Source: Verrucomicrobiota bacterium (GTDB lineage: Bacteria > Verrucomicrobiota > Verrucomicrobiia > Limisphaerales > Palsa-1400). From it: a DNA stretch of 64,000 nt. Below the pieces are notes generated by a model, which was given only the letters and a program-made list of their open reading frames with translations, made no database searches and was not told the DNA's origin. Below, in pieces: positions 5,320 to 47,729 of the stretch (positions are counted from its first letter, which is position 1; each line of letters begins with the position of its first letter). The position numbers were made by a program, and so were the translations under genes. The DNA lies in NCBI GenBank assembly GCA_049510745.1, contig JBEKYR010000010.1:32001-96000 (forward strand), read 5' to 3'.

Positions 5320-5775
5320 TCAGTCCCAAACATACCGTTCGTCGAATTCGATCTCATAGCGTTTCAATAGTTGCCGGAACTCCTCCTGGAATGAAACCTT
5401 CCGATGATGATTCTCTTGTTCCGCGATATACCTCCGGACAGCCTCGATTTGCGAGAAGCCGATGGAGAAAATCCCGTAGCCGTTCTGCCACGCGAAATCC
5501 CGCAAGTCCGCGCTCTTGGTTTTAATCCACAGTGACGAGCCGCGCTTCACCTCTTTGACCATCCCCGCCGCTTGGCAGGTGCGCGACAGAGCGGAGAGAA
5601 TGTGAACGTGGTCTTCCACACCGCCGACGATGATGGGCTGGCAGTCCTGGTTGGCCAGAATACCGCCCAGGTAACGATGCAATTCGGCGCGAATTGATGG
5701 GTCGCGCAGAAGGGGGCGGCGATCTTTGGTTGAGAAAACGGTGTGAACCAGAATTTTGGCGAGCGACTGTGACAT
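5320..5775 (-). CDS. tnpA: IS200/IS605-family Y1 HUH transposase (REP-associated, RAYT-like)
   Basis: HTVFSTKDRRP, EDHVHIL (HUH), FAWQNGYG, RYIAEQENHH (catalytic Tyr). No tnpB; REP-like repeats on both sides. Confidence 0.92.
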   Translation of the reverse strand: MSQSLAKILVHTVFSTKDRRPLLRDPSIRAELHRYLGGILANQDCQPIIVGGVEDHVHILSALSRTCQAAGMVKEVKRGSSLWIKTKSADLRDFAWQNGYGIFSIGFSQIEAVRRYIAEQENHHRKVSFQEEFRQLLKRYEIEFDERYVWD

Positions 5776-6133: not shown

Positions 6134-6464
6134 CACGACCTGTGAGCACTTGCTCCTTTGACATAAAGTGGAGTCGCCGGGGAATAAACCTGCCCGCCCG
6201 CCGCGGGACGGACCGCACGGCGAAGCGGTCATCCCGGCAATTTGTTCTGGTCTGCAGGCCGCCAGCAATGGCGTCAGGCTCCCGCGGGCCAACCAATGAC
6301 GTTGACGACCACCCCGCCACGGGGGGCAGCCTATCCGCATGGAAGCTTGACGCAAAAACTCAAACGTGCCCCGGTCCAGACGCAGACGCCATGCATCGCC
6401 AGCACCGGGAACTACCCCTGGAGGCGGCAAAAAATGCCGGATTCAAACCGGAAAACGAATCCAA

Positions 6465-6524
6465 AAACCCGGACAAATCCGGAAAAATCCGGAAAAATCC
6501 GGGTGAATCCGGCTAAATCGGGCC
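6465..6524 (+). repeat. Six tandem 10-mers, consensus AAATCCGGnn
   Basis: aaacccggac aaatccggaa aaatccggaa aaatccgggt gaatccggct aaatcgggcc. Confidence 0.85.
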
Positions 6525-38447: not shown

Positions 38448-39776
38448 ATGAAAATCAACCAGCAAATCCGGCCAGCCGATTTGACGGGCAAAATCCGCCG
38501 GCTATGGGAGTTGTCCGCCGTCAAAATTCGCGCGCTGGACGCCGGCTACGATGTTGCCAAGGGTTCGCCGGTTTTCACCGTGCGCGGCCGTTACACGGCG
38601 CGCGGCTGGACGGAATGGACGCAAGGCTTTCAGGTGGGGGCGGCTCTTCTGCAATTCGATGCGACGGGCGAGGGGGAGTTTCTGGAAATGGGGCGAAGCC
38701 AGACGGTGCGCTGGATGGCGCCGCATGTCAGCCATTTTGGCGTGCATGATCACGGCTTCAACAACGTCAGCACCTATGGCAACCTCCTGCGCCTGATGAG
38801 CGAGGGCCGCCTGGCTGAGAATCCGTGGGAACGCGATTTCTACCGACTGGCCCTCAAGTTGAGCGGCGCGATCCAGGCGCGGCGCTGGACGGCGCTGCCG
38901 GAGGGCGGCGGCTTCATCTACTCGTTCAACGGGCCGCATTCGCTCTTTGTGGACACCCTTCGTTCGTTGCGCGCGCTGGCCCTGGGGCATCAACTGGGCC
39001 ACGTGTTGATGGAGGAGAACGACCGGCGGATATCGTTGCTTGACAGGCTTAAAGCCCACGCCACCGCCACCGCCGCTTATTGCGTCTGCTACGGCGAGGG
39101 GCGCGACGCCTACGACGTGCGCGGGCGCACGGCGCACGAGGCGATTTTCAACGCCAACGACGGCCATTTCCGCTGCCTCAATTCGCAGCAGGGTTATTCG
39201 CCCTTCAGCACCTGGACGCGCGGGCTGGCCTGGGCCATGTGCGGCTTCGCCGAGCAATTGGAATTCATGCGGGCCATCGGCGACGCCTCCCTCACGCCGT
39301 TGCTGCTCAAGGCGGCGCAAGCGACGTGCGACTTTTACCTCACGCACGCGGCCGCCGCCGACGGCATTCCATATTGGGACACCGGTGCGCCGCAGCTTTA
39401 CCGGCTGGGCGACTGGCAATCGCGCCCCGCCGATCCGTTCAACGCGCACGAACCGGTGGACAGCTCGGCGGCGGCCATCGCCGCGCAGGGGTTGCTGCGC
39501 CTGGGCCATTACCTCAAAAACAAACGCTATTGGCAGGCCGGCCTGACGCTGTTGGACGCGCTCTTCGACGAACCCTACCTCAGCACGGACCCAAAGCACC
39601 AGGGCCTGATTCTCCACAGCGTCTATCACCGTCCCAACAGCTGGGATTACATCCCCCGCGGCCAAAAAGTGCCGTGCGGCGAGTCCAGCATGTGGGGCGA
39701 TTACCACGCCCGCGAGGCCGCCCTTTATGTGCAGCGCATCGTCACTGCGGGCCGTTACCTGGCCTTTTTCTTATGA
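38448..39776 (+). CDS. GH88-like unsaturated glucuronyl hydrolase
   Basis: WTQGF, HDHGF, QGYS..STWTRGLAWA, IPYWD, DSSAAAIAA, WGDY. Confidence 0.85.
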   Translation: MKINQQIRPADLTGKIRRLWELSAVKIRALDAGYDVAKGSPVFTVRGRYTARGWTEWTQGFQVGAALLQFDATGEGEFLEMGRSQTVRWMAPHVSHFGVHDHGFNNVSTYGNLLRLMSEGRLAENPWERDFYRLALKLSGAIQARRWTALPEGGGFIYSFNGPHSLFVDTLRSLRALALGHQLGHVLMEENDRRISLLDRLKAHATATAAYCVCYGEGRDAYDVRGRTAHEAIFNANDGHFRCLNSQQGYSPFSTWTRGLAWAMCGFAEQLEFMRAIGDASLTPLLLKAAQATCDFYLTHAAAADGIPYWDTGAPQLYRLGDWQSRPADPFNAHEPVDSSAAAIAAQGLLRLGHYLKNKRYWQAGLTLLDALFDEPYLSTDPKHQGLILHSVYHRPNSWDYIPRGQKVPCGESSMWGDYHAREAALYVQRIVTAGRYLAFFL

Positions 39777-40570
39777 CCGCCGACCGCGCAAACGATCCGA
39801 AAAAACGCGTCGCGCTGGTGACGGGCGGCGCCCGCGGCATCGGCTTCGGCATCGCGCGGGCGCTGGCGCGGGAGGGTTTCGATTTGACTGTTTGCGGCGT
39901 GCGCGAAGGCGCGGCCGCCGAACCGGCCCTGGCCGTCTTGCGCCAATTGGGCGCCGCCGTGCTTTACGTCCAGGCGGACATCAGTGACAGCGCCGCGCGG
40001 CAACGGCTGGTGGAAGCGGCGCGGGAGAGATTTGGCCGCCTGCACCTGCTGGTCAACAACGCCGGTGTGGCGCCCAAAGTTCGGGCCGATATTCTGGAAG
40101 CGACCGAGGAGAGTTTCGAGTGGGTGCTGCGGGTCAATCTGCAAGGCCCTTACTTCCTGACGCAACGTTGCGCGCAATGGATGATCGCGCAGAAGAAGGC
40201 CGACCCAGCCTGGCAGGGCTGCATCGTTAACGTCTCGTCCATTTCCGCGACCGTCGCTTCCACCAACCGCGGGGACTATTGCGTCTCCAAAGCCGGGGTC
40301 GCGATGGCCACGCAATTGTGGGCGGCGCGCCTGGGCGAATTTGGCCTGCCCGTCTATGAAATCCGCCCCGGCCTCATTCAGACCGACATGACGGCCGCGA
40401 CGCAGGCCAAGTACGACAAACTGATAGCGGAGGGGTTGCTGGTGGAGCCGCGTTGGGGCGCGGCCGAAGACATCGGCAAAGCCGTGGCGATGCTGGCGCG
40501 CGGCGACCTGCCTTACGCCACCGGCCAGGTGCTCAACCTGGACGGCGGCCTGACCCTTCGCCGCCTGTAA
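39773..40570 (+). CDS. SDR-family oxidoreductase
   Basis: TGGARGIG, NNAG, YCVSK; ATGA overlap with the GH88 gene. Confidence 0.93.
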   Translation: MTADRANDPKKRVALVTGGARGIGFGIARALAREGFDLTVCGVREGAAAEPALAVLRQLGAAVLYVQADISDSAARQRLVEAARERFGRLHLLVNNAGVAPKVRADILEATEESFEWVLRVNLQGPYFLTQRCAQWMIAQKKADPAWQGCIVNVSSISATVASTNRGDYCVSKAGVAMATQLWAARLGEFGLPVYEIRPGLIQTDMTAATQAKYDKLIAEGLLVEPRWGAAEDIGKAVAMLARGDLPYATGQVLNLDGGLTLRRL

Positions 40571-40761
40571 ACGGCGGAAATCCCGGGTCATTTTCCCCGG
40601 TCAATTGGGGCCTGCTCGCCGGCGGCCCCGACGTCAGGGCGAATTTTGCCAAAAAAAGGCCCTGAAAAAATTCCACTTTTTTTCCTTCCGTAGGTTTTTC
40701 GACTTTACCGGGTTGTGCTCAAATTGCGTCCGCGATGAAACGCAACGCAGACATGATAAAT

Positions 40762-40983
40762 ATGAAAACGAGCCGAATCCTTCCGGTTGCCGCCGCCGCC
40801 TTGCTCGCGGCCGGCTGCAAAAACCCCGTCAACCTCTCCGGCTCCTACGCCACCCCGGCGCAGGACATCACCGGGTCCGTCAGCGTCACGACCAACAGCG
40901 TGACGGTGGGGGGCACTTGCGCGAAGACCAATGAAACCGTCGGCGGCAGTGTCACCGTCGGGAAGGAAGAAGGAAGAAGGTAG
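40762..40983 (+). CDS. Small lipoprotein
   Basis: MKTSRILPVAAAALLAAGC lipobox, followed by short beta-strand repeats. Confidence 0.75.
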   Translation: MKTSRILPVAAAALLAAGCKNPVNLSGSYATPAQDITGSVSVTTNSVTVGGTCAKTNETVGGSVTVGKEEGRR

Positions 40984-40987
40984 AATT

Positions 40988-41350
40988 ATGAAACTCACCT
41001 CCATCCTGGCCTTTCTCCTTCTGACTTCAGCCTTCGTCCTTTCTCCCGGTTGCGCTTGTCCGCGGCGCAAGGCGGAAACGACGCGCTCGGTGGAATGGTT
41101 CACGGGCCGCGATGACGGCTTGGTGCGGCGCGAGACCTGGCGCGACGCGGAGGGCGGCGGGGGACTGTTCCTGTTCACCGATCCGGCGGTGCAACAAATG
41201 TTCGCGCTGCACACCAACCAGACGGCGTTGGGAGGCGGAAGCCTCTTCAGCGCCGGCACGGCCACAATCACAGTCGATACCAACACCGCCGCCGTGGTCG
41301 GCGCCACGGGGACGGCCGCCGGCAACGTCATCGGCGCGGCGATGAAATAA
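40988..41350 (+). CDS. Small lipoprotein with Gly/Ala-rich C-terminal helix
   Basis: MKLTSILAFLLLTSAFVLSPGC ... VVGATGTAAGNVIGAAMK (glycine-zipper-like). Confidence 0.7.
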   Translation: MKLTSILAFLLLTSAFVLSPGCACPRRKAETTRSVEWFTGRDDGLVRRETWRDAEGGGGLFLFTDPAVQQMFALHTNQTALGGGSLFSAGTATITVDTNTAAVVGATGTAAGNVIGAAMK

Positions 41351-41435
41351 AGCATGAAGGAAGAAGGAAAAAATCAATCAGCGGCCTCGCGGCCGGAACA
41401 CTCATGATTCTTGTTTCATCCATCTTGCTTTTCCC

Positions 41436-42287
41436 ATGAATCCGCCCGTGCCAAACATATTCGATCCCGCCAACGCCGCCCTGCTGGCGCGGATCAGCGC
41501 CGCGACGTACCAGGCCCAGTTCGAGAGGGAACGGTGGAACGCGGAAGTGGTCGAAGCACCCGACACCGAAACGCGCGTCATTATCCTGAGCGATGAGGCC
41601 GATGAGATCGTCGCTTTCCGGGGCACACGGAACATCCACAACTGGCTCATGGACCTGGAGTGCGAGTTGGCGGACGATCCGCCGGGCCGAATCCATCACG
41701 GCTTCCAAAGGGCGCTCGACTCGATTGAAGGCGAATTAGTCCGCGCGCTTGAGAACTTGAAATCGCGCCGGGTCTGGATGGCGGGCCACAGCCTGGGGGG
41801 CGCGCTGGCTGTGCTCTGCGCCCGCCGGCTGTTGCCCTTGAATTTGGCGGGTGTTTACACGTTCGGCCAACCTCGCGTTGGCGACTCCCCGTTCGCTCAA
41901 TTCTACAATTCACAACTCAAACCGCTGACTTGGCGAGTGGTTTACGCCGATGACATTGTGCCGCGCATCCCTTGGATGCCGGGTGGCTACCGTCACGCCG
42001 GCCACGAAGTTTTCTACCCGGCAGGGCGGCGCTCCCGCGGAGCCGGCCCGGCCGGAGCCGCACCCTACCAGATTGACCCGCCGTTGTGGCAAAAGCTCCC
42101 CAGCGATTTGCGCGGCCTGGCCCGCGAAGCCTGGCGCGGCAAACTGGCCCTGCTCAACGACCACCACATCGACAACTACGTCAAACTTTTTCCTAATCTT
42201 AATCCTTCTCCCAATCTTAATCTCCCCCCGGACGATTCTGAGGGCGGGAGGGGGATTAAGATCAGGATTACGATGAGGAGCCGATAA
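41436..42287 (+). CDS. Class 3 lipase (alpha/beta hydrolase)
   Basis: VAFRGT, IHHGF, GHSLGG, YTFGQPRVG, DDIVPRIP, DHHIDNY; no signal peptide. Confidence 0.93.
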   Translation: MNPPVPNIFDPANAALLARISAATYQAQFERERWNAEVVEAPDTETRVIILSDEADEIVAFRGTRNIHNWLMDLECELADDPPGRIHHGFQRALDSIEGELVRALENLKSRRVWMAGHSLGGALAVLCARRLLPLNLAGVYTFGQPRVGDSPFAQFYNSQLKPLTWRVVYADDIVPRIPWMPGGYRHAGHEVFYPAGRRSRGAGPAGAAPYQIDPPLWQKLPSDLRGLAREAWRGKLALLNDHHIDNYVKLFPNLNPSPNLNLPPDDSEGGRGIKIRITMRSR

Positions 42288-42302
42288 AAACCCTTTCTTG
42301 AT

Positions 42303-42734
42303 ATGATGCTCAGCGAGATTTCCTCCGCCGATTTGGGCACCTGGATGTACGCCCTTGGCTCTGTCATCCAGATCGCCGCCACCGTCACCATCCTGGTCAC
42401 TATCAACTCCAAGCAAAAGCGCGAGGTTTCGTTCGCGGGCCAGGCGGTGGACCAGAAGGAATTCGACCGGCTGGTGGCGGAAAACGCGGCGGTCCACGAC
42501 CAGTTGTTCGCCAAGATCGGAGGGGTGGAAAGGGGCGTGGACAGCCGCCTGGCGGTGCGCCTGGACAAGTTCGAGGCCGAAGCCCATGAGTCGCGCCGCC
42601 TCATGCACCAAAACATCAGCGCCATCGGCAACGACGTGGCGGCGTTGAAGAAGGAAGCCGAGCTGGCCAACCAGCGGGCCTTCCAGATGGACGCAAAAAT
42701 CGACCGCCTGATTGAACGAGAAAGACTAGCATGA
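42303..42734 (+). CDS. Single-TM coiled-coil protein, positional equivalent of Mu gp25
   Basis: N-terminal TM helix, coiled coil ending KIDRLIER; lies just before gp26/27/28-like genes. Confidence 0.7.
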   Translation: MMLSEISSADLGTWMYALGSVIQIAATVTILVTINSKQKREVSFAGQAVDQKEFDRLVAENAAVHDQLFAKIGGVERGVDSRLAVRLDKFEAEAHESRRLMHQNISAIGNDVAALKKEAELANQRAFQMDAKIDRLIERERLA

Positions 42735-43003
42735 TAACCGAGAACCAACTCGAGCTGTTTCGCGACGCGCTCTTGCGCGCCCTCAAAGCCGCCGGCTCGA
42801 CCGGCTTAAGTGTATCCACCCTGGAAATCGCGCTGCGCGCCTCCGGCTTCCGCCATTTCAACACGCAGGAACTGGAGGGGCAACTGCAATACTTTGGGGA
42901 CAAAGACTTCGCCGCCGAAGTGCCGAAATCGCACAGCGTGTCAAACAAACGCTGGCGGATCACCGCCGCTGGCATCGACGACCTGGAAGGGAGGGGGATG
43001 TGA
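42731..43003 (+). CDS. Small winged-helix protein, Mu gp26-like
   Basis: RDALLRALK...ELEGQLQYFGDKDF...WRITAAGIDDLEG; ATGA coupling. Confidence 0.75.
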   Translation: MITENQLELFRDALLRALKAAGSTGLSVSTLEIALRASGFRHFNTQELEGQLQYFGDKDFAAEVPKSHSVSNKRWRITAAGIDDLEGRGM

Positions 43004-43578
43004 ACAAGGACAAGACAGGGGCGCCAAGCCCGGCGCGCAAGCCTCTCAGCAATTCGTATTGGGACACGCTGAGCGAAGAGGAAAAGGAGTTGGTGCAATC
43101 GGTGTTGCGCAAGCCGGGGGTTTCCCTGCGCGAGGCGAGGGGGCTGGTCCCGCCGATGCGGGACGGTGAGGGGAAGGAGATAGGCCCGCCCGCCGTCGGG
43201 ACGCTCTCCAGGATTTCGCAGGAACTGCGGACGGAGGAAATGCTCTTGGAGATCGAGGCTGACACGGAGCTGGCGAAAGTCATTTGCGGGAAACTCCGGT
43301 CCGGCGCGCTCAGGTCACAGGTGCAGGAGCGGTTGTTGGATGAAATCATGGAAGTAATTGGCGAGGAGGTCAGGCACAAGAGCCTGCGCCGAATGGACCC
43401 CGCCATCCGGACGGCCTCCGCCCGCCTGTTGCTCAAGCGGGCCGACCAACGGCGGGCGGACCGGCGGCAGAAATTCCTCGAGGCGCGAGCCAGGAGAATT
43501 GAAGCCGGACCGACCCGGCCCCACTTGACCGAAGAAGACAAGCAACGGCGTCTAAAGGAACTCCTGGAAATTGCCTGA
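43000..43578 (+). CDS. Helical protein, Mu gp27/DUF3486-like (candidate small terminase)
   Basis: WDTLSEEEKELV, HTH-like SLREAR..VGTLSR, and C-terminal LTEEDKQRRLKELL; stop overlaps the terL start. Confidence 0.6.
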   Translation: MNKDKTGAPSPARKPLSNSYWDTLSEEEKELVQSVLRKPGVSLREARGLVPPMRDGEGKEIGPPAVGTLSRISQELRTEEMLLEIEADTELAKVICGKLRSGALRSQVQERLLDEIMEVIGEEVRHKSLRRMDPAIRTASARLLLKRADQRRADRRQKFLEARARRIEAGPTRPHLTEEDKQRRLKELLEIA

Positions 43579-45119
43579 TGCCGAAAAAATCCAGATCTGT
43601 TTGGCCAGAGCCGCCCAGCGGCCCCAAAGGCCGTCTCCGCGACCGGCTGCTGAAATACCAGCAGCGGTGGGTGGACGATGAATCGCGCTGGAAATTCGGC
43701 CTGATGTCGCGCCAGGTGGGAAAAGATTTTGCCTCCGGGTACGAAGGCGTTTTCGATTGCATGCGCGCCGACGCGGTCGGGAAAAGAACCGATTGGCTGA
43801 TCGTAGCGCCGTCCGAGCGGCAATCGTTGGAATCGCTGGAGAAGTGGAAGTTCTGGGCCAAAGCATTCAAAGGCGTCCTCGAAGACTATGTGGAAAAGCG
43901 CGAAGGCGGCAAAGAAAGCCTGCTCAAATCCGCCACGATCACCTTCCCGTTCGGCAGCCGCGTGATTGCGGTGCCGGGCAAGCCGGACACGGTGCGCGGG
44001 TTCAGCGCGAACGTATTATTGACGGAGTTCGCCTACTTCGAGCAGCCCGACGCCACCTGGCGGGCGATCCTGCCCAGCATCACCAACCCGATTCGCGGCG
44101 GCGTCAAAAAGGTCCGCCTCATCACCACGCCCAACGGCATCGGCAACAAGACGCATGACATCTGGGTCAAGAACCACAAGCCAATCAGCGGACAATTAGT
44201 GAATGGAGGAATCAGTGAATCAGTGAATGCCGAATTCAACAATTCACTCATTCAAACCTCAACTATTGCCGGCGCGTCCGCGCCGGTCTGGTCGTGCCAT
44301 TTCGTCCCGATCCAGGCCGCGGTCGGTGACGGCCTGCCCGTCAACCTCGACGAACTGCGCCAGGCGCTGGACGACCCGGAAGGCTGGGCCCAGGAATTTG
44401 AGTGCCAGTTCATCGACGTTCAGACGGTCCTGCTTCCCTACGAATTGATCGCCGCTTGCGAGAGCAGCGAGGCGACGGCCGCCGCGCCGCCGGATTTCTG
44501 GCTGGGCGGCGGCGCGGGGTCCCCGCCGCTGGTCATGGGCATTGACTTCGGGCGTCGCCGCGACCTGACGGTCGCCTGGAGCAACGCGCAACTGGGAGAC
44601 GTCGCGCGCACGGTGGAGGTGCTGGAATTGGATAAGATGAGCACGCCCGAGCAAGTCGAGTTGTTGCGCCCGCGCCTGCGGCAGGCCCGGCGCGTCTGCC
44701 TGGATTACACCGGGCCGGGCATCGGGCTGGGCGATTACCTGGCGAAGGAGTATGGCGAATGGAATCCGAGTCAACACAAATTCGGGAAGATCGAACTCTG
44801 CGCCTTCACGCCGGGGTTGAAAGTGGAGATTTTCTCCAAGCTGCGCATGGCCTTTGAGAAACGTTCCGTGCGCGTGCCGGTCAGCCGGGCGATTCGGGAA
44901 GACCTGCACAGCGTCAACCGCGTGAGCGGGGCGGCCGGGCAGGTCAGTTACCGCGCGCCGCACAACGCCGACGGCCACGCCGACCGTTGCACGGCCCTGG
45001 CCCTGGCCTGGCGCGCCGCCGGCGCCTCCACCGCCCCGGCCGCCAGCGCCCCCGTGAAAGTCCCGCCCCGTGGCGGCAACCTGGGCCTGGGCAAGGCCGG
45101 CGGGGAGATGTGGCCGTGA
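43578..45119 (+). CDS. terL: Phage large terminase, Mu gp28-like
   Basis: LLKYQQRWV, SRQVGKD, SERQS, PDTVRGFSANVLLTEFA, TTPNG, WAQEFECQF; nuclease GIDFGRRRD, LDYTGPG, GHADR. Confidence 0.92.
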   Translation: MPKKSRSVWPEPPSGPKGRLRDRLLKYQQRWVDDESRWKFGLMSRQVGKDFASGYEGVFDCMRADAVGKRTDWLIVAPSERQSLESLEKWKFWAKAFKGVLEDYVEKREGGKESLLKSATITFPFGSRVIAVPGKPDTVRGFSANVLLTEFAYFEQPDATWRAILPSITNPIRGGVKKVRLITTPNGIGNKTHDIWVKNHKPISGQLVNGGISESVNAEFNNSLIQTSTIAGASAPVWSCHFVPIQAAVGDGLPVNLDELRQALDDPEGWAQEFECQFIDVQTVLLPYELIAACESSEATAAAPPDFWLGGGAGSPPLVMGIDFGRRRDLTVAWSNAQLGDVARTVEVLELDKMSTPEQVELLRPRLRQARRVCLDYTGPGIGLGDYLAKEYGEWNPSQHKFGKIELCAFTPGLKVEIFSKLRMAFEKRSVRVPVSRAIREDLHSVNRVSGAAGQVSYRAPHNADGHADRCTALALAWRAAGASTAPAASAPVKVPPRGGNLGLGKAGGEMWP

Positions 45120-45298
45120 TGGAAGGGCAAGACCTGAGCGGCTCTACCAATTTTTGTCGCGCGCAAGACAAAGTTTGGCAAGGGCCTGATTGGAATTGTG
45201 GCTGGCGGGTTTTGGGGATTGATTTGTAGGATTTTCCCGGACAGGAAAACCGGTTGACTTGCGGGCCGGGTTGGCGATAATCGTCCTGCGCCCAAAAT

Positions 45299-45802
45299 AT
45301 GGCACGACTTGTAATTCTCAGTGAAGGGCTGACAGGAAAGGCTCACGAACTGGCGGTGGAGAAGACCACCATCGGACGCGTTGACGACAACATGTTCCCT
45401 ATCCCCGAAGGCTCGGTTTCCAGCCATCATTGCGAGGTGTTGTTGCGCGGGTCGGAGGTGGTGATCCACGACCTCCATTCGACCAACGGAACTTTTATCA
45501 ACGGCCATCAGATCACGGGTGAGGCTCCGATCAAGCCCGGGCAGATTTTGCGCCTGGGCCAGGTGGAAATGCGGCTGGAGGAGAGCGGCGCGCAAAAGGC
45601 CCCGCCCAAGAAACTGCCCGATCAAACCATGGTCATTCCGCAGGGCGTCAAGCTGGGTCAGGAACCGCCCACCGCAGCCGTGGCGTTCGATAAGACCGCC
45701 TTCACCAAGAAGAGCAACACCGGGACCAAAGTTTTCCTCGGGGTCGTCATCGCGCTGGCGATTGGAATTGGGATCATGCTCCTGTTCCTGTTCGTCAAGT
45801 AA
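45299..45802 (+). CDS. FHA-domain protein with C-terminal TM helix
   Basis: IGR, VSSHH, DLHSTNGTFING; upstream TTGACT...GATAAT promoter. Confidence 0.93.
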   Translation: MARLVILSEGLTGKAHELAVEKTTIGRVDDNMFPIPEGSVSSHHCEVLLRGSEVVIHDLHSTNGTFINGHQITGEAPIKPGQILRLGQVEMRLEESGAQKAPPKKLPDQTMVIPQGVKLGQEPPTAAVAFDKTAFTKKSNTGTKVFLGVVIALAIGIGIMLLFLFVK

Positions 45803-45803
45803 T

Positions 45804-47729
45804 TCACCAGTCTTTGATCCTGCCGGTTCGGTTTTTAACGGGCTGGTTTTCCGGCGCGAAGATCAACACTTTTTCGTCGTCCTTCTGCGCCTCGAGCAGT
45901 TGGCGGGCTTCTTGCGGGGTCATGCGCGCCTCGGCCACTGCCGCCGGTTCGCCGTTTTCCTGGCCTTTGTCGTTCTGATCGCCCTGCCGGGCTTGTTGCT
46001 GTGGCTTCTCCTGGTCTTTCCCGGCTTGTTCCTGGCGGGCCTTCTCCTCGTCCTTCTTTTGCTGGCCGGATTTGTTCTCCTGCGGCTGGTCCTTCTTTTG
46101 GTCCTGCTGGGATGATGGCTGTTGCTGGTTTTGATCCTTCTTTTTGTCCTGGTTTTGCTGCTGTTGCCGGTCTTTCTGGTCCTGGTCCTTTTGATCCTGG
46201 TTTTGGTCCTTTTTCTGTTGTTGCTGTTGCTGCTTTAGCTCCTCCAACTTATGTTTGACGTAGGCGAGGTTGTTTTTGGCGTCGAGATCGTTGGTGTCGA
46301 GGCGGAGGGCGCGGATAAAGCTCTCCACCGATTGCTGCCAGCATTGTTTCTTCTTTTCCGGGTCGGGCAGCGGCTCGCCCAGGCGGAAGAGGGTGTTGCC
46401 GAGGTTGAAATAGGCGTGCTGCTGCGATTGCGGGTCGGCAACGATGTCCGCGGAATTGAGCGCGGCGTTGAATTGGTCGAGGGCGCTGTCCAGCTTTTTT
46501 GCCTTGTAGGCGGCCGCGCCCGCGTCGTAATGCAGGCGGTAATCGTTGGTTTTTTGTTGCGAGAGCCGGTTGTATTCGTCGAACGAATCCTCAAAGTTTC
46601 CGGATTGAAAATCGCGAAAGGCGCGGGAGGGCGAGCCGTGGGCCGCCGGCGCCGCCAGGAGCAGAACCAGGAGGGCGGCGGTTTGCGGCAGCGCGGCCCC
46701 GGCGGGGGCGACGTCGGTCCGGCGCGAGCGCGGGCTTTCGGGCAGCAGCACCTCGATCACCAGGCAGAGGACGGCGAAGCCCAGCGGCCAATGATAGCGT
46801 TCGCGATAGACGCGCGCCAGGCGGGTTGTCTCCTCGGTTTTGGGCAGCGGCGCCAGGCCGCGCGCATAGAGTGTTTCCATCGGATTGGCTCCTTGCAGCG
46901 GCAGGTAAAACCCGCCGGCCTCGGTGGCGATTTGTTGCAGCAAGGTTTGGTTCAAGCGCGATTTGACCGCGTTGTCGTCGTCGTCCTTGACGAAAACCGG
47001 GTTGCCCTGCTCGTCCGGGACGCGGAGCAGTTCGCCCTCCGGCGTGCCGACGCCGATGGTGAAGATGCGCAGGCCGGCCTGGGCGGCTTCCTTGGCCGCG
47101 GCCATCGTTTCCGCCTCCGCATCGTGGTCTTCGCCGTCGGTGAAGAGGACCAAAACCTTATGATTGTCGTTGCCCTTCTCGAAGGCGGCGAGAGCGGTCC
47201 TGATCGCTTCGGCCAGCGCGGTGCCGCCTTGGGGAATGATGCCGACGGAGACGGCATCGACCGCCTCCTGGAAGGCGGCCTCGTCGAGCGTCAGCGGCGC
47301 CTGCAAGAAAGCCGAGCCGGCGAAAGCGACCAGGCCGAGGCGGTCGGTTTTGGCCAGGCGCATGAGGTCGATAATGGCGAGCTTGGCCTTGTTCAGCCGG
47401 TTGGGCGCCACGTCCTGGGCCAGCATGCTGCGCGAGGTGTCGATGGCGACGATAATGTCCAGGCCTTGCTGTTTGGCTTCCTCCCAGGCGAAGCCCCATT
47501 GCGGCCGGGCCAGCGCCAGCAGCACGCCGGCGACGGCCGCCACCAACAAGGCCAGCCGTACTTTCTGCCGCGCCGCCGAAACGCCGGCCGTCAGGCTGGG
47601 GAGCAAACGGGCGCGGACGAACTGCAGGACCAACTTTTGTTTGACGCGCCACGACCAGCAGAGAAATCCAATGAGCGCCGGGAGGACGGCGAGCAGGACC
47701 CAAAGCACTTGTGGTTGCGCGAATTTCAT
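45804..47729 (-). CDS. batB: BatB-BatC fusion (VWA plus TPR plus Q/D/K-rich tail)
   Basis: DTSRSMLAQDVAPNRL, PLTLD, TDGE, TPR YFNLGN, poly-Q, C-terminal KDW. Confidence 0.88.
   Translation of the reverse strand: MKFAQPQVLWVLLAVLPALIGFLCWSWRVKQKLVLQFVRARLLPSLTAGVSAARQKVRLALLVAAVAGVLLALARPQWGFAWEEAKQQGLDIIVAIDTSRSMLAQDVAPNRLNKAKLAIIDLMRLAKTDRLGLVAFAGSAFLQAPLTLDEAAFQEAVDAVSVGIIPQGGTALAEAIRTALAAFEKGNDNHKVLVLFTDGEDHDAEAETMAAAKEAAQAGLRIFTIGVGTPEGELLRVPDEQGNPVFVKDDDDNAVKSRLNQTLLQQIATEAGGFYLPLQGANPMETLYARGLAPLPKTEETTRLARVYRERYHWPLGFAVLCLVIEVLLPESPRSRRTDVAPAGAALPQTAALLVLLLAAPAAHGSPSRAFRDFQSGNFEDSFDEYNRLSQQKTNDYRLHYDAGAAAYKAKKLDSALDQFNAALNSADIVADPQSQQHAYFNLGNTLFRLGEPLPDPEKKKQCWQQSVESFIRALRLDTNDLDAKNNLAYVKHKLEELKQQQQQQKKDQNQDQKDQDQKDRQQQQNQDKKKDQNQQQPSSQQDQKKDQPQENKSGQQKKDEEKARQEQAGKDQEKPQQQARQGDQNDKGQENGEPAAVAEARMTPQEARQLLEAQKDDEKVLIFAPENQPVKNRTGRIKDW

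Follow-up and report, generated by a model that had tools for sequence, protein, structure and literature searches.

A probable split, host-inherited Mu-like packaging and virion gene set in Verrucomicrobia and its candidate role as a gene transfer agent

Introduction

Gene transfer agents (GTAs) are viriforms for which PMC9662315 gives six features: they are made of tailed-phage proteins, are endogenized, often at several loci, and are inherited mostly vertically; they also package mostly random host DNA, have heads too small for the whole set of their own genes and deliver the DNA to other cells. Few GTAs have known genes and most of those are alphaproteobacterial, according to PMC12946183. 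Here we describe a seven-gene operon (positions 40762 to 45119) in a 64-kb window, meaning the whole stretch of DNA that was analysed (G000:C10:32001-96000), from the genome of a peat-dwelling member of the Verrucomicrobiota, which we term G000 and which is 94% complete. The operon encodes a large terminase (TerL) together with genes in the lysis slot of a Mu-like phage, and we consider it very probable that it is one piece of a split, host-inherited and selected system derived from such a phage. Of the mechanisms weighed, we favour a role of the split system as a GTA, with modest confidence. Three of the six features can apparently be read from the genomes: tailed-phage-derived proteins, endogenization at several loci and mostly vertical descent.

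The system resembles RcGTA, BaGTA and BhGTA in having phage-derived head and tail genes at several loci that descend mostly vertically, with no replication gene found (PMC9662315). It differs from them in its descent from a Mu-like phage that was transposable (Portal_Mu, Mu-like_Pro, Gp36, Gam and a MuB remnant), in its Verrucomicrobiota host and in the placing of terL beside lysis-slot genes and apart from the portal gene. FpGTA of Faecalibacterium likewise has two separated operons, one with lysis genes, and is near-ubiquitous in its host group; however, it keeps terS, terL, portal and capsid together, is podovirus-like and has been shown as particles (PMC12946183), whereas the system here is split between terL and portal and has a siphophage-type tube. 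Unlike all of these agents, it is known from its genes alone.

The likeness to phage Mu lies in the gene order (lysis slot, membrane protein, winged helix, terS slot, terL, portal, protease, capsid, gp36), in Gam and MuB and in a dyad upstream of the late genes that is spaced like the Mu C sites described in PMC2582627. In contrast to Mu, no MuA and no Mor/C-family gene were found, MuB is truncated, the operons are dispersed, the tube is non-contractile, a lipase replaces a recognisable endolysin and the terminase Walker motifs are swapped. A functional Mu-like prophage would carry linked MuA and full-length MuB in one contiguous genome, and neither was seen; Mu-type head genes and Gam are present (PF06074, PF10123, PF07030, PF07352). 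A search of the literature by title and start of abstract, covering main articles without supplements and few subscription papers, found no description of such a system. Provirus domestication in general is treated in PMC13626063, the main text of which does not bring up Verrucomicrobia or Mu-like elements. If our reading is true, GTAs would have arisen once more, independently and out of a transposable phage, among Verrucomicrobia of peat and soil, and the route from prophage to GTA would be comparatively testable because relatives preserve intermediate steps: an intact prophage, a joined copy without MuA, a duplicated promoter and split operons. Also on offer would be a named candidate activator, a lysis slot built on a lipase, a terminase with a swapped active site and what may be a class of transposable satellites.

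Results and discussion

The operon in the window

The seven ORFs all lie on the + strand and none contains an internal stop. They are listed here with the motif that precedes them.

40680 to 40738, + strand: promoter-like motif with an A/T tract, a CC-N7-GG dyad (40684-40694), a T run, TGTGnTnAAnT (40714-40724) and ATGA (40735-40738)
40762 to 40983, + strand: lipoprotein 1, 73 aa, with a lipobox Cys; homologues in relatives and in intact prophages
40988 to 41350, + strand: lipoprotein 2, 120 aa; 40-72% identity across 15 copies in relatives
41436 to 42287, + strand: class 3 lipase (Lipase_3, PF01764, E 3e-29); Ser, Asp and His motifs present
42303/6 to 42734, + strand: membrane/coiled-coil protein with an N-terminal hydrophobic segment and a coiled coil; no family match
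42731 to 43003, + strand: winged-helix protein, 90 aa; ESM Atlas TM 0.74-0.88 to winged-helix and viral clusters
43000 to 43578, + strand: small terminase candidate (terS slot), by position
43578 to 45119, + strand: large terminase, TerL (phrog_2, E 1e-32); three nuclease Asp motifs intact

A sequence-only reading of this DNA had described seven intact, co-oriented genes between an SDR gene and an FHA gene, and ORF calls and Pfam (SDR at 39773-40570, FHA at 45299-45802) bear this out. Its identification of the lipase, the terminase and the winged helix was likewise confirmed, the last by the fold of the 90-aa protein in ESM Atlas, as was the coupling of the last four genes, which overlap by 4, 4 and 1 nt. 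The GC content of 0.60-0.64 is similar to that of the flanks, and the in-frame inserts it had taken for repeats are just that, with 12-mers that occur 35, 5 and 16 times genome-wide against fewer than one expected; one insert, of a host repeat, lies in TerL near 44190-44270, and the C-terminal tail of lipoprotein 1 also derives from a host repeat. Its statement that the TerL motifs are intact holds for the nuclease aspartates but not for the ATPase half, which it had left unchecked and which is non-canonical. The virion, repressor and lysis genes that it had found lacking in the window did not turn up either when the 42 other proteins encoded there were scanned, since no PHROG family for head, tail, portal, repressor or lysis functions was matched (E<=1e-5); a transposase, which it also took to be absent, is present as a small gene at 5320-5775 (- strand; phrog_2577, E 7e-16) that is unrelated to the operon. 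The module is isolated within the window only, and the remaining parts lie elsewhere in G000.

Contigs from three of four independent peat metagenome runs span the junction between terL and the FHA gene (44379-45525, 44221-46049 and 44960-45295), and one peat metagenome contig among the pieces listed (40298-41061) spans that between the SDR gene and lipoprotein 1; these contigs rule out an assembly artefact at the ends of the operon.

Lipoprotein 1 matched no PHROG or Pfam family above cut-off and is likely an envelope or lysis accessory. The membrane/coiled-coil protein (71-77% identity in six relatives) and the winged-helix protein (phrog_436, E 0.001) occupy the positions of Mu gp25 and gp26. 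The gene at 43000-43578 is, from its position, likely the small terminase, and it evolves fast (26-43% identity, dN/dS 0.3-0.8).

Further pieces of the element elsewhere in the genome

Element pieces were found at four loci of G000, on contigs C3, C9, C10 and C23, each flanked by host genes. The portal, protease, capsid and tail cluster lacking MuA that the sequence-only reading had proposed to look for in the rest of the genome was found at C23:47607-63991. This 16.4-kb head-tail operon starts at the portal gene (PF06074, the one copy in G000), has host-like codon scores and also lies between host genes. It further encodes a protease (PF10123), a gp36-like adaptor (PF07030), a tube protein that matches T5-type siphophage tube proteins (E 3e-8), a fibre, and a tape measure of 249 aa that is 25% identical to the one encoded by an intact prophage, which has 508 aa (E about 1e-11). 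The putative capsid is identified by gene position and by a low-confidence model (pLDDT 55) that matches the HK97-fold structure 3BJQ (E 2.5e-8); its profile had no matches among PDB sequences. Most of the gaps between genes of this operon are taken up by a host hairpin repeat, which also splits the hub gene and is found in frame in terL and portal.

An early-region remnant lies at C3:208678-211105. It comprises a repressor gene, a gene for 76 aa, MuB cut down to 165 aa and Gam (PF07352), with no MuA between them. At C9:127471-128871 an HTH_17-like gene (below the Pfam cut-off) and a repressor-like gene (phrog_8, E 0.001) are divergently oriented. Searches of G000 with the transposases of the G010 and G043 prophages, of phage contig L160 and of the mini-Mu blocks of relatives gave no MuA match. 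Two phrog_310 matches were seen in G000, one of them a fragment on C15 and the other a weak candidate on C6; this family was discarded as a family-wide test of MuA absence since it is too unspecific, with matches in 27 of 31 genomes. Neither PF11985, PF10124 nor Mor/C (PF08765) matched in G000, the PF11985 control matching nowhere, and no gpF-like or gpG-like phage head gene was found in the family clusters retrieved. Together the element loci amount to about 24.6 kb on four contigs; related phage contigs reach 42 kb.

Conservation, selection and descent

We compared G000 with relatives (other G numbers, with genera written g1, g3, g5, g7, g8 and g10) and with extracted loci and viral contigs (L numbers). 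TerL matches were found in 25/30 genomes of the family and in 5/30 from other families, Portal_Mu in 19/31 family genomes (16 of the 18 of high quality) and the tube in 21/31; in G022 none of terL, portal, capsid, tube and HTH_17 gave a match. Sixteen relatives of one Limisphaerales family share the gene order of the operon. The portal lies apart from it in G002 (where the downstream FHA gene is also retained), G004, G006, G010, G012, G017, G020, G024 and G026, and is joined to it in G001, G008, G011, G014, G016, G021, G025 and G028. The closest homologues of TerL are cellular copies (62-75% identity; viral contigs reach at most 61% among 86 compared), and the capsid is 84-92% identical in ten relatives of four genera and 63-65% in seven viral loci. 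Intact Mu-like prophages are also present (G010:C115, G012:C4 and G043:C65).

Purifying selection is indicated by Nei-Gojobori medians of dN/dS against G000, several with saturated dS: TerL 0.22 (n=9), membrane protein 0.15 (7), lipoprotein 2 0.26 (7), lipase 0.26 (6), portal 0.20 (11), capsid 0.08 (11), tube 0.10 (9) and rpoB 0.04 (10). The capsid and rpoB have similar dS (0.88 and 0.89). Close pairs at a shared site also show low dN/dS (tube of G025/G028, 0.03/0.22; capsid of G015/G020, 0.03/0.55).

Gene trees, built by a careful method for rpoB and capsid, as a quick tree for portal and by a faster method for the others, mostly follow rpoB. The host genera come out in the trees of both head and tail genes. 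In the concatenated head tree g3 and g8 form groups, g8 with the two sub-pairs that rpoB also gives, and G000 pairs with G002. Distances correlate with those of rpoB (rho 0.23-0.85, p 0.0005-0.04) once between one and four copies that are not orthologous had been removed for six of the eight genes. Vertical descent holds within g1, g3, g5 and g8, and for tail genes across five genera; the exceptions are G001 and the heads of g7 and g10.

The sequence-only reading, which had suggested a long-resident, domesticated and split module, named four findings that would instead make it an ordinary decayed prophage, and none of them was obtained: the module is present in relatives, the dN/dS of its genes is 0.15-0.26, its closest homologues are cellular and the junction at its end is bridged. 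Decay was nevertheless weighed, in the form of Mu-like prophages that were captured repeatedly, lost MuA, rearranged and are slowly eroding. Mosaic heads, the divergent G001 copy, split and frameshifted genes and degenerate element copies in G011, G021 and G005 speak for it; however, the head-tail operon is present as a single copy in ten relatives at host-like dS, dN/dS is low even in the close pairs at a shared site, the upstream motifs change in concert and a regulator pair stays at one host locus in three genera (both described below). We regard decay as the least probable of the explanations considered. Next to one portal-protease remnant, in G021:C6, cas9/cas1/cas2-like genes were noticed by eye directly upstream (L057:14591-18932).

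A number of observations weigh against the reading of a split, host-inherited system that works like a GTA. With dS close to saturation, the dN/dS ratios are approximate and in part record selection in the past. With G001 included, the capsid correlation is not significant (rho 0.23, p 0.14). Capture or replacement occurred more than once, because the head genes vary by lineage: the g10 capsid is from another family (phrog_1005), g7 has an HK97-type portal and capsid, and G001 holds a divergent joined copy (capsid 68%). The host flanks of both structural operons vary between genera. Signs of decay are a tape measure with dN/dS of 0.33-0.78 that is absent in G016, the loss of the terS-slot gene in G002 and of the lipase in G004, frameshifts in several relatives and, on C23 itself, a hub gene in three pieces, split by host repeats. 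MuA could be unassembled in G000, because that genome is only 94% complete. There are 25 intergenic sites of the upstream motif in G000, and a mobile repeat could have delivered the motif to the operons, because 17 of the sites head a dispersed repeat. The predicted ATPase of the swapped TerL has non-canonical motifs. Finally, particles, transcripts and packaged DNA are here predictions from genes.

A shared upstream motif and a candidate regulator

The motif at 40680-40738 is likely an activator-dependent late promoter. The 29 nt before lipoprotein 1 are identical to the stretch before the C23 portal gene, and in all seven split genomes with both regions a genome-specific version of the motif precedes both operons. 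The upstream alignments of these seven score 45-145; the maxima of 200 base shuffles, which preserved base content only, are 27-33. In the joined G001 a different element is duplicated before both gene sets. The dyad bound by Mu C has its centre at -43.5 (PMC2582627), and by a strict pattern the CC-N7-GG dyad is centred 42-46 nt before a conserved RTGA in only 9/27 regions. The stand-alone tape-measure genes of G004 and G017 did not show the shared motif, their scores being within those of the shuffles.

A single, close HTH_17 orthologue was found beside the repressor in the same ten relatives that have the 84-92% capsid, and this regulator pair adjoins ilvE-mcsA in 7/10 of them, in three genera. 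We infer that HTH_17 is the activator of the shared dyad promoters because of this co-occurrence, with no Mor/C gene found. Two other helix-turn-helix-like ORFs with no match in G000 were seen, one of 94 aa inside the g3 tail operon (L048:9641-9925, L043, L045 and L050) and one of 76 aa in the g10 early block (L062:11181-11411).

The dispersed repeat headed by the motif is about 520 bp long, has 17 close copies and holds the 3' end of a KIARLP gene; it could be an RNA, a mobile repeat or a set of pac-like sites. As transposon ends or pac sites the dispersed repeats were unsupported, with about 12 nt of inverted end similarity by eye and no target duplication. A partial copy was found in the window by tblastn, and its link to the system is uncertain.

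6301 to 6513, + strand: partial copy of the ~520-bp repeat (C10:38301-38513)

How a gene transfer agent might operate

If the split system acts as a GTA, relief of repression would allow the HTH_17 protein to activate the shared dyad promoters, and HK97-fold heads and short non-contractile tails, set by the 249-aa tape measure, would assemble. TerL, guided by fast-evolving or alternative small terminases, would then pack chromosomal DNA into the heads, the element being unable to transpose or replicate. The producer cell would be opened by the lipase, the membrane protein and the lipoproteins, and the particles would carry host DNA to kin.

The lipase cassette in the lysis slot

The lipase and the missing endolysin, both remarked on in the sequence-only reading, do not point to domestication, as two intact prophages in relatives share both: the transposable prophages of G010 and G012 carry the identical order lipoprotein-lipoprotein-lipase, and no Pfam endolysin was found in their lysis slot among 52 proteins scanned. 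The same slot is filled in this way in viral contigs L238, L243 and L244, and class 3 lipases occupy the lysis slot of the related Mu-like phages L238, L243, L244, L274 and L088; L162, L160 and L241 have Amidase_3 (L162), DUF1353 or an unassigned gene there. We conclude from these comparisons that the cassette is ancestral, native to the parent transposable phages, because intact transposable prophages in relatives carry the matching cassette. Since the slot holds an amidase in the related phage L162, the lipase is likely, by analogy, the lysis enzyme, with a role that we presume to be like that of mycobacteriophage LysB. In G002 the lipase is shortened.

Particles that do not transfer DNA, acting in PBSX-like killing, as decoys or in programmed lysis that releases DNA or vesicles, would also make use of the retained lysis-slot genes, and would suit variable fibre genes, a non-canonical TerL ATPase and a tape measure that is short and weakly constrained (190-300 aa in the family, 430-555 aa in phage and mini-Mu copies; short ORFs were found by HMM in five clusters and same-slot ORFs in four more). 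Portal, protease, capsid and TerL are, however, under purifying selection, and a tailocin needs none of them; a tailocin proper is excluded, since these genes are present and conserved. The terminase change also occurs in two viral contigs and covaries in all 72 sequences. Such particles seem to us quite unlikely.

Mini-Mu blocks in relatives

In 11 relatives there is a separate block with a MuA-like protein of 758-907 aa, whose three acidic motifs match MuA of the G010 prophage. Genes for a MuB-like protein (phrog_296) and a 430-555-aa tape measure are adjacent in 8/11, and a capsid gene is present in three. The blocks (among them L309 in G004:C79, L310 in G017:C3, L311, L312, L314, L316 and L317) occupy differing host sites; no terminase, portal or tube was seen in the stretches retrieved, and neither element ends nor target duplications were found. 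Their MuA departs from the host tree, with same-genus dN of 0.67 and 0.87 and a cross-genus dN of 0.21, and shows no correlation with rpoB (rho 0.00, 7 taxa). No mini-Mu was found in G000, G001, G002 or G016, and that of G024 is truncated. These mini-Mu-like elements are candidate transposable phage satellites. They resemble capsid-forming satellites and laboratory mini-Mu in being without terminase, portal or tube over the stretches retrieved and in sometimes having their own capsid, and they differ in using MuA/MuB rather than an integrase, in carrying a tape measure and in perhaps having a host-fixed helper.

The fixed operons might therefore mainly make virions for the moving mini-Mu, with host DNA as flanking cargo. 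The mini-Mu would supply MuA, MuB, a long tape measure and sometimes the capsid, lacks the packaging and tube genes in the stretches retrieved and has a MuA that is uncorrelated with rpoB. Against this, G000, G001, G002 and G016 retain the structural genes with no mini-Mu found, the intact prophages of G010 and G012 could be the helpers instead, no mini-Mu ends or target duplications were detected, and a satellite alone leaves the retention of the genes by the host unexplained. We think a helper role of this kind unlikely. A two-party system is a tentative alternative that we rate as possible yet doubtful: a host-inherited, split and co-regulated particle factory would by itself pack host DNA with small terminases that can be exchanged, and a MuA/MuB satellite that spreads horizontally would add the long tape measure and sometimes the capsid.

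Terminase active site and additional terL and KIARLP genes

We found that the ATPase motifs of TerL are non-canonical, with a Walker A that ends GKD and a Walker B that reads LLTE. The swap is reciprocal (Walker A S/T to D, Walker B D to T/S). Walker A GKD with Walker B T/S-E occurs in 17/22 cellular and 2/50 viral sequences (L158 and L159), and the remaining 53 keep the canonical Asp in Walker B and have none in Walker A, such that the two changes covary in 72/72 sequences and are never apart. Because they never separate, the pattern fits a compensatory swap, which would predate domestication and was probably a single event.

G000 has three more full-length terL paralogues (61-67% identity) and one fragment. 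Extra terL-KIARLP cassettes lie at C8:64421-69971, C22:40492-42780 and C70:13119-15384. KIARLP has seven matches in G000 and is present in 29/31 family genomes, with up to 40 matches per genome; several of the genes carry the same upstream motif as the operons. An alignment of 12 sequences showed that the C-terminal motif of the terS-slot protein is common to phage pre-terL genes and dispersed KIARLP proteins, and a related KIARLP protein matches a cluster with 17% PF11985 members, which is a lead only.

These copies bear on the suggestion of the sequence-only reading that the module might be a packaging-interference defence unit. The operons and the terL/KIARLP cassettes could poison packaging or tail assembly of incoming Mu-like phages, with the repressors giving immunity; related transposable phages do infect the family, and four full-length terL genes and seven KIARLP matches in G000, with the motif at several KIARLP genes, would fit. 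None of ten proteins, however, matched a catalogued anti-phage system in PADLOC 2.0 (2023 library, E<=0.01), a near-complete head-tail operon with a capsid dN/dS of 0.08 exceeds what interference would need, and the system has its own conserved regulator pair. As a stand-alone function, defence is weakened by the matching head-tail operon under selection, and we consider interference very unlikely.

The single-contig genome G005 has seven terL matches genome-wide and no tube match, and at one of its loci (L272, C1:5240000-5251000) terL is followed by HK97-type portal and capsid-like genes. In G020:C22 and G022:C390 the KIARLP domain is fused to the C terminus of DDE-type proteins of about 700 aa.

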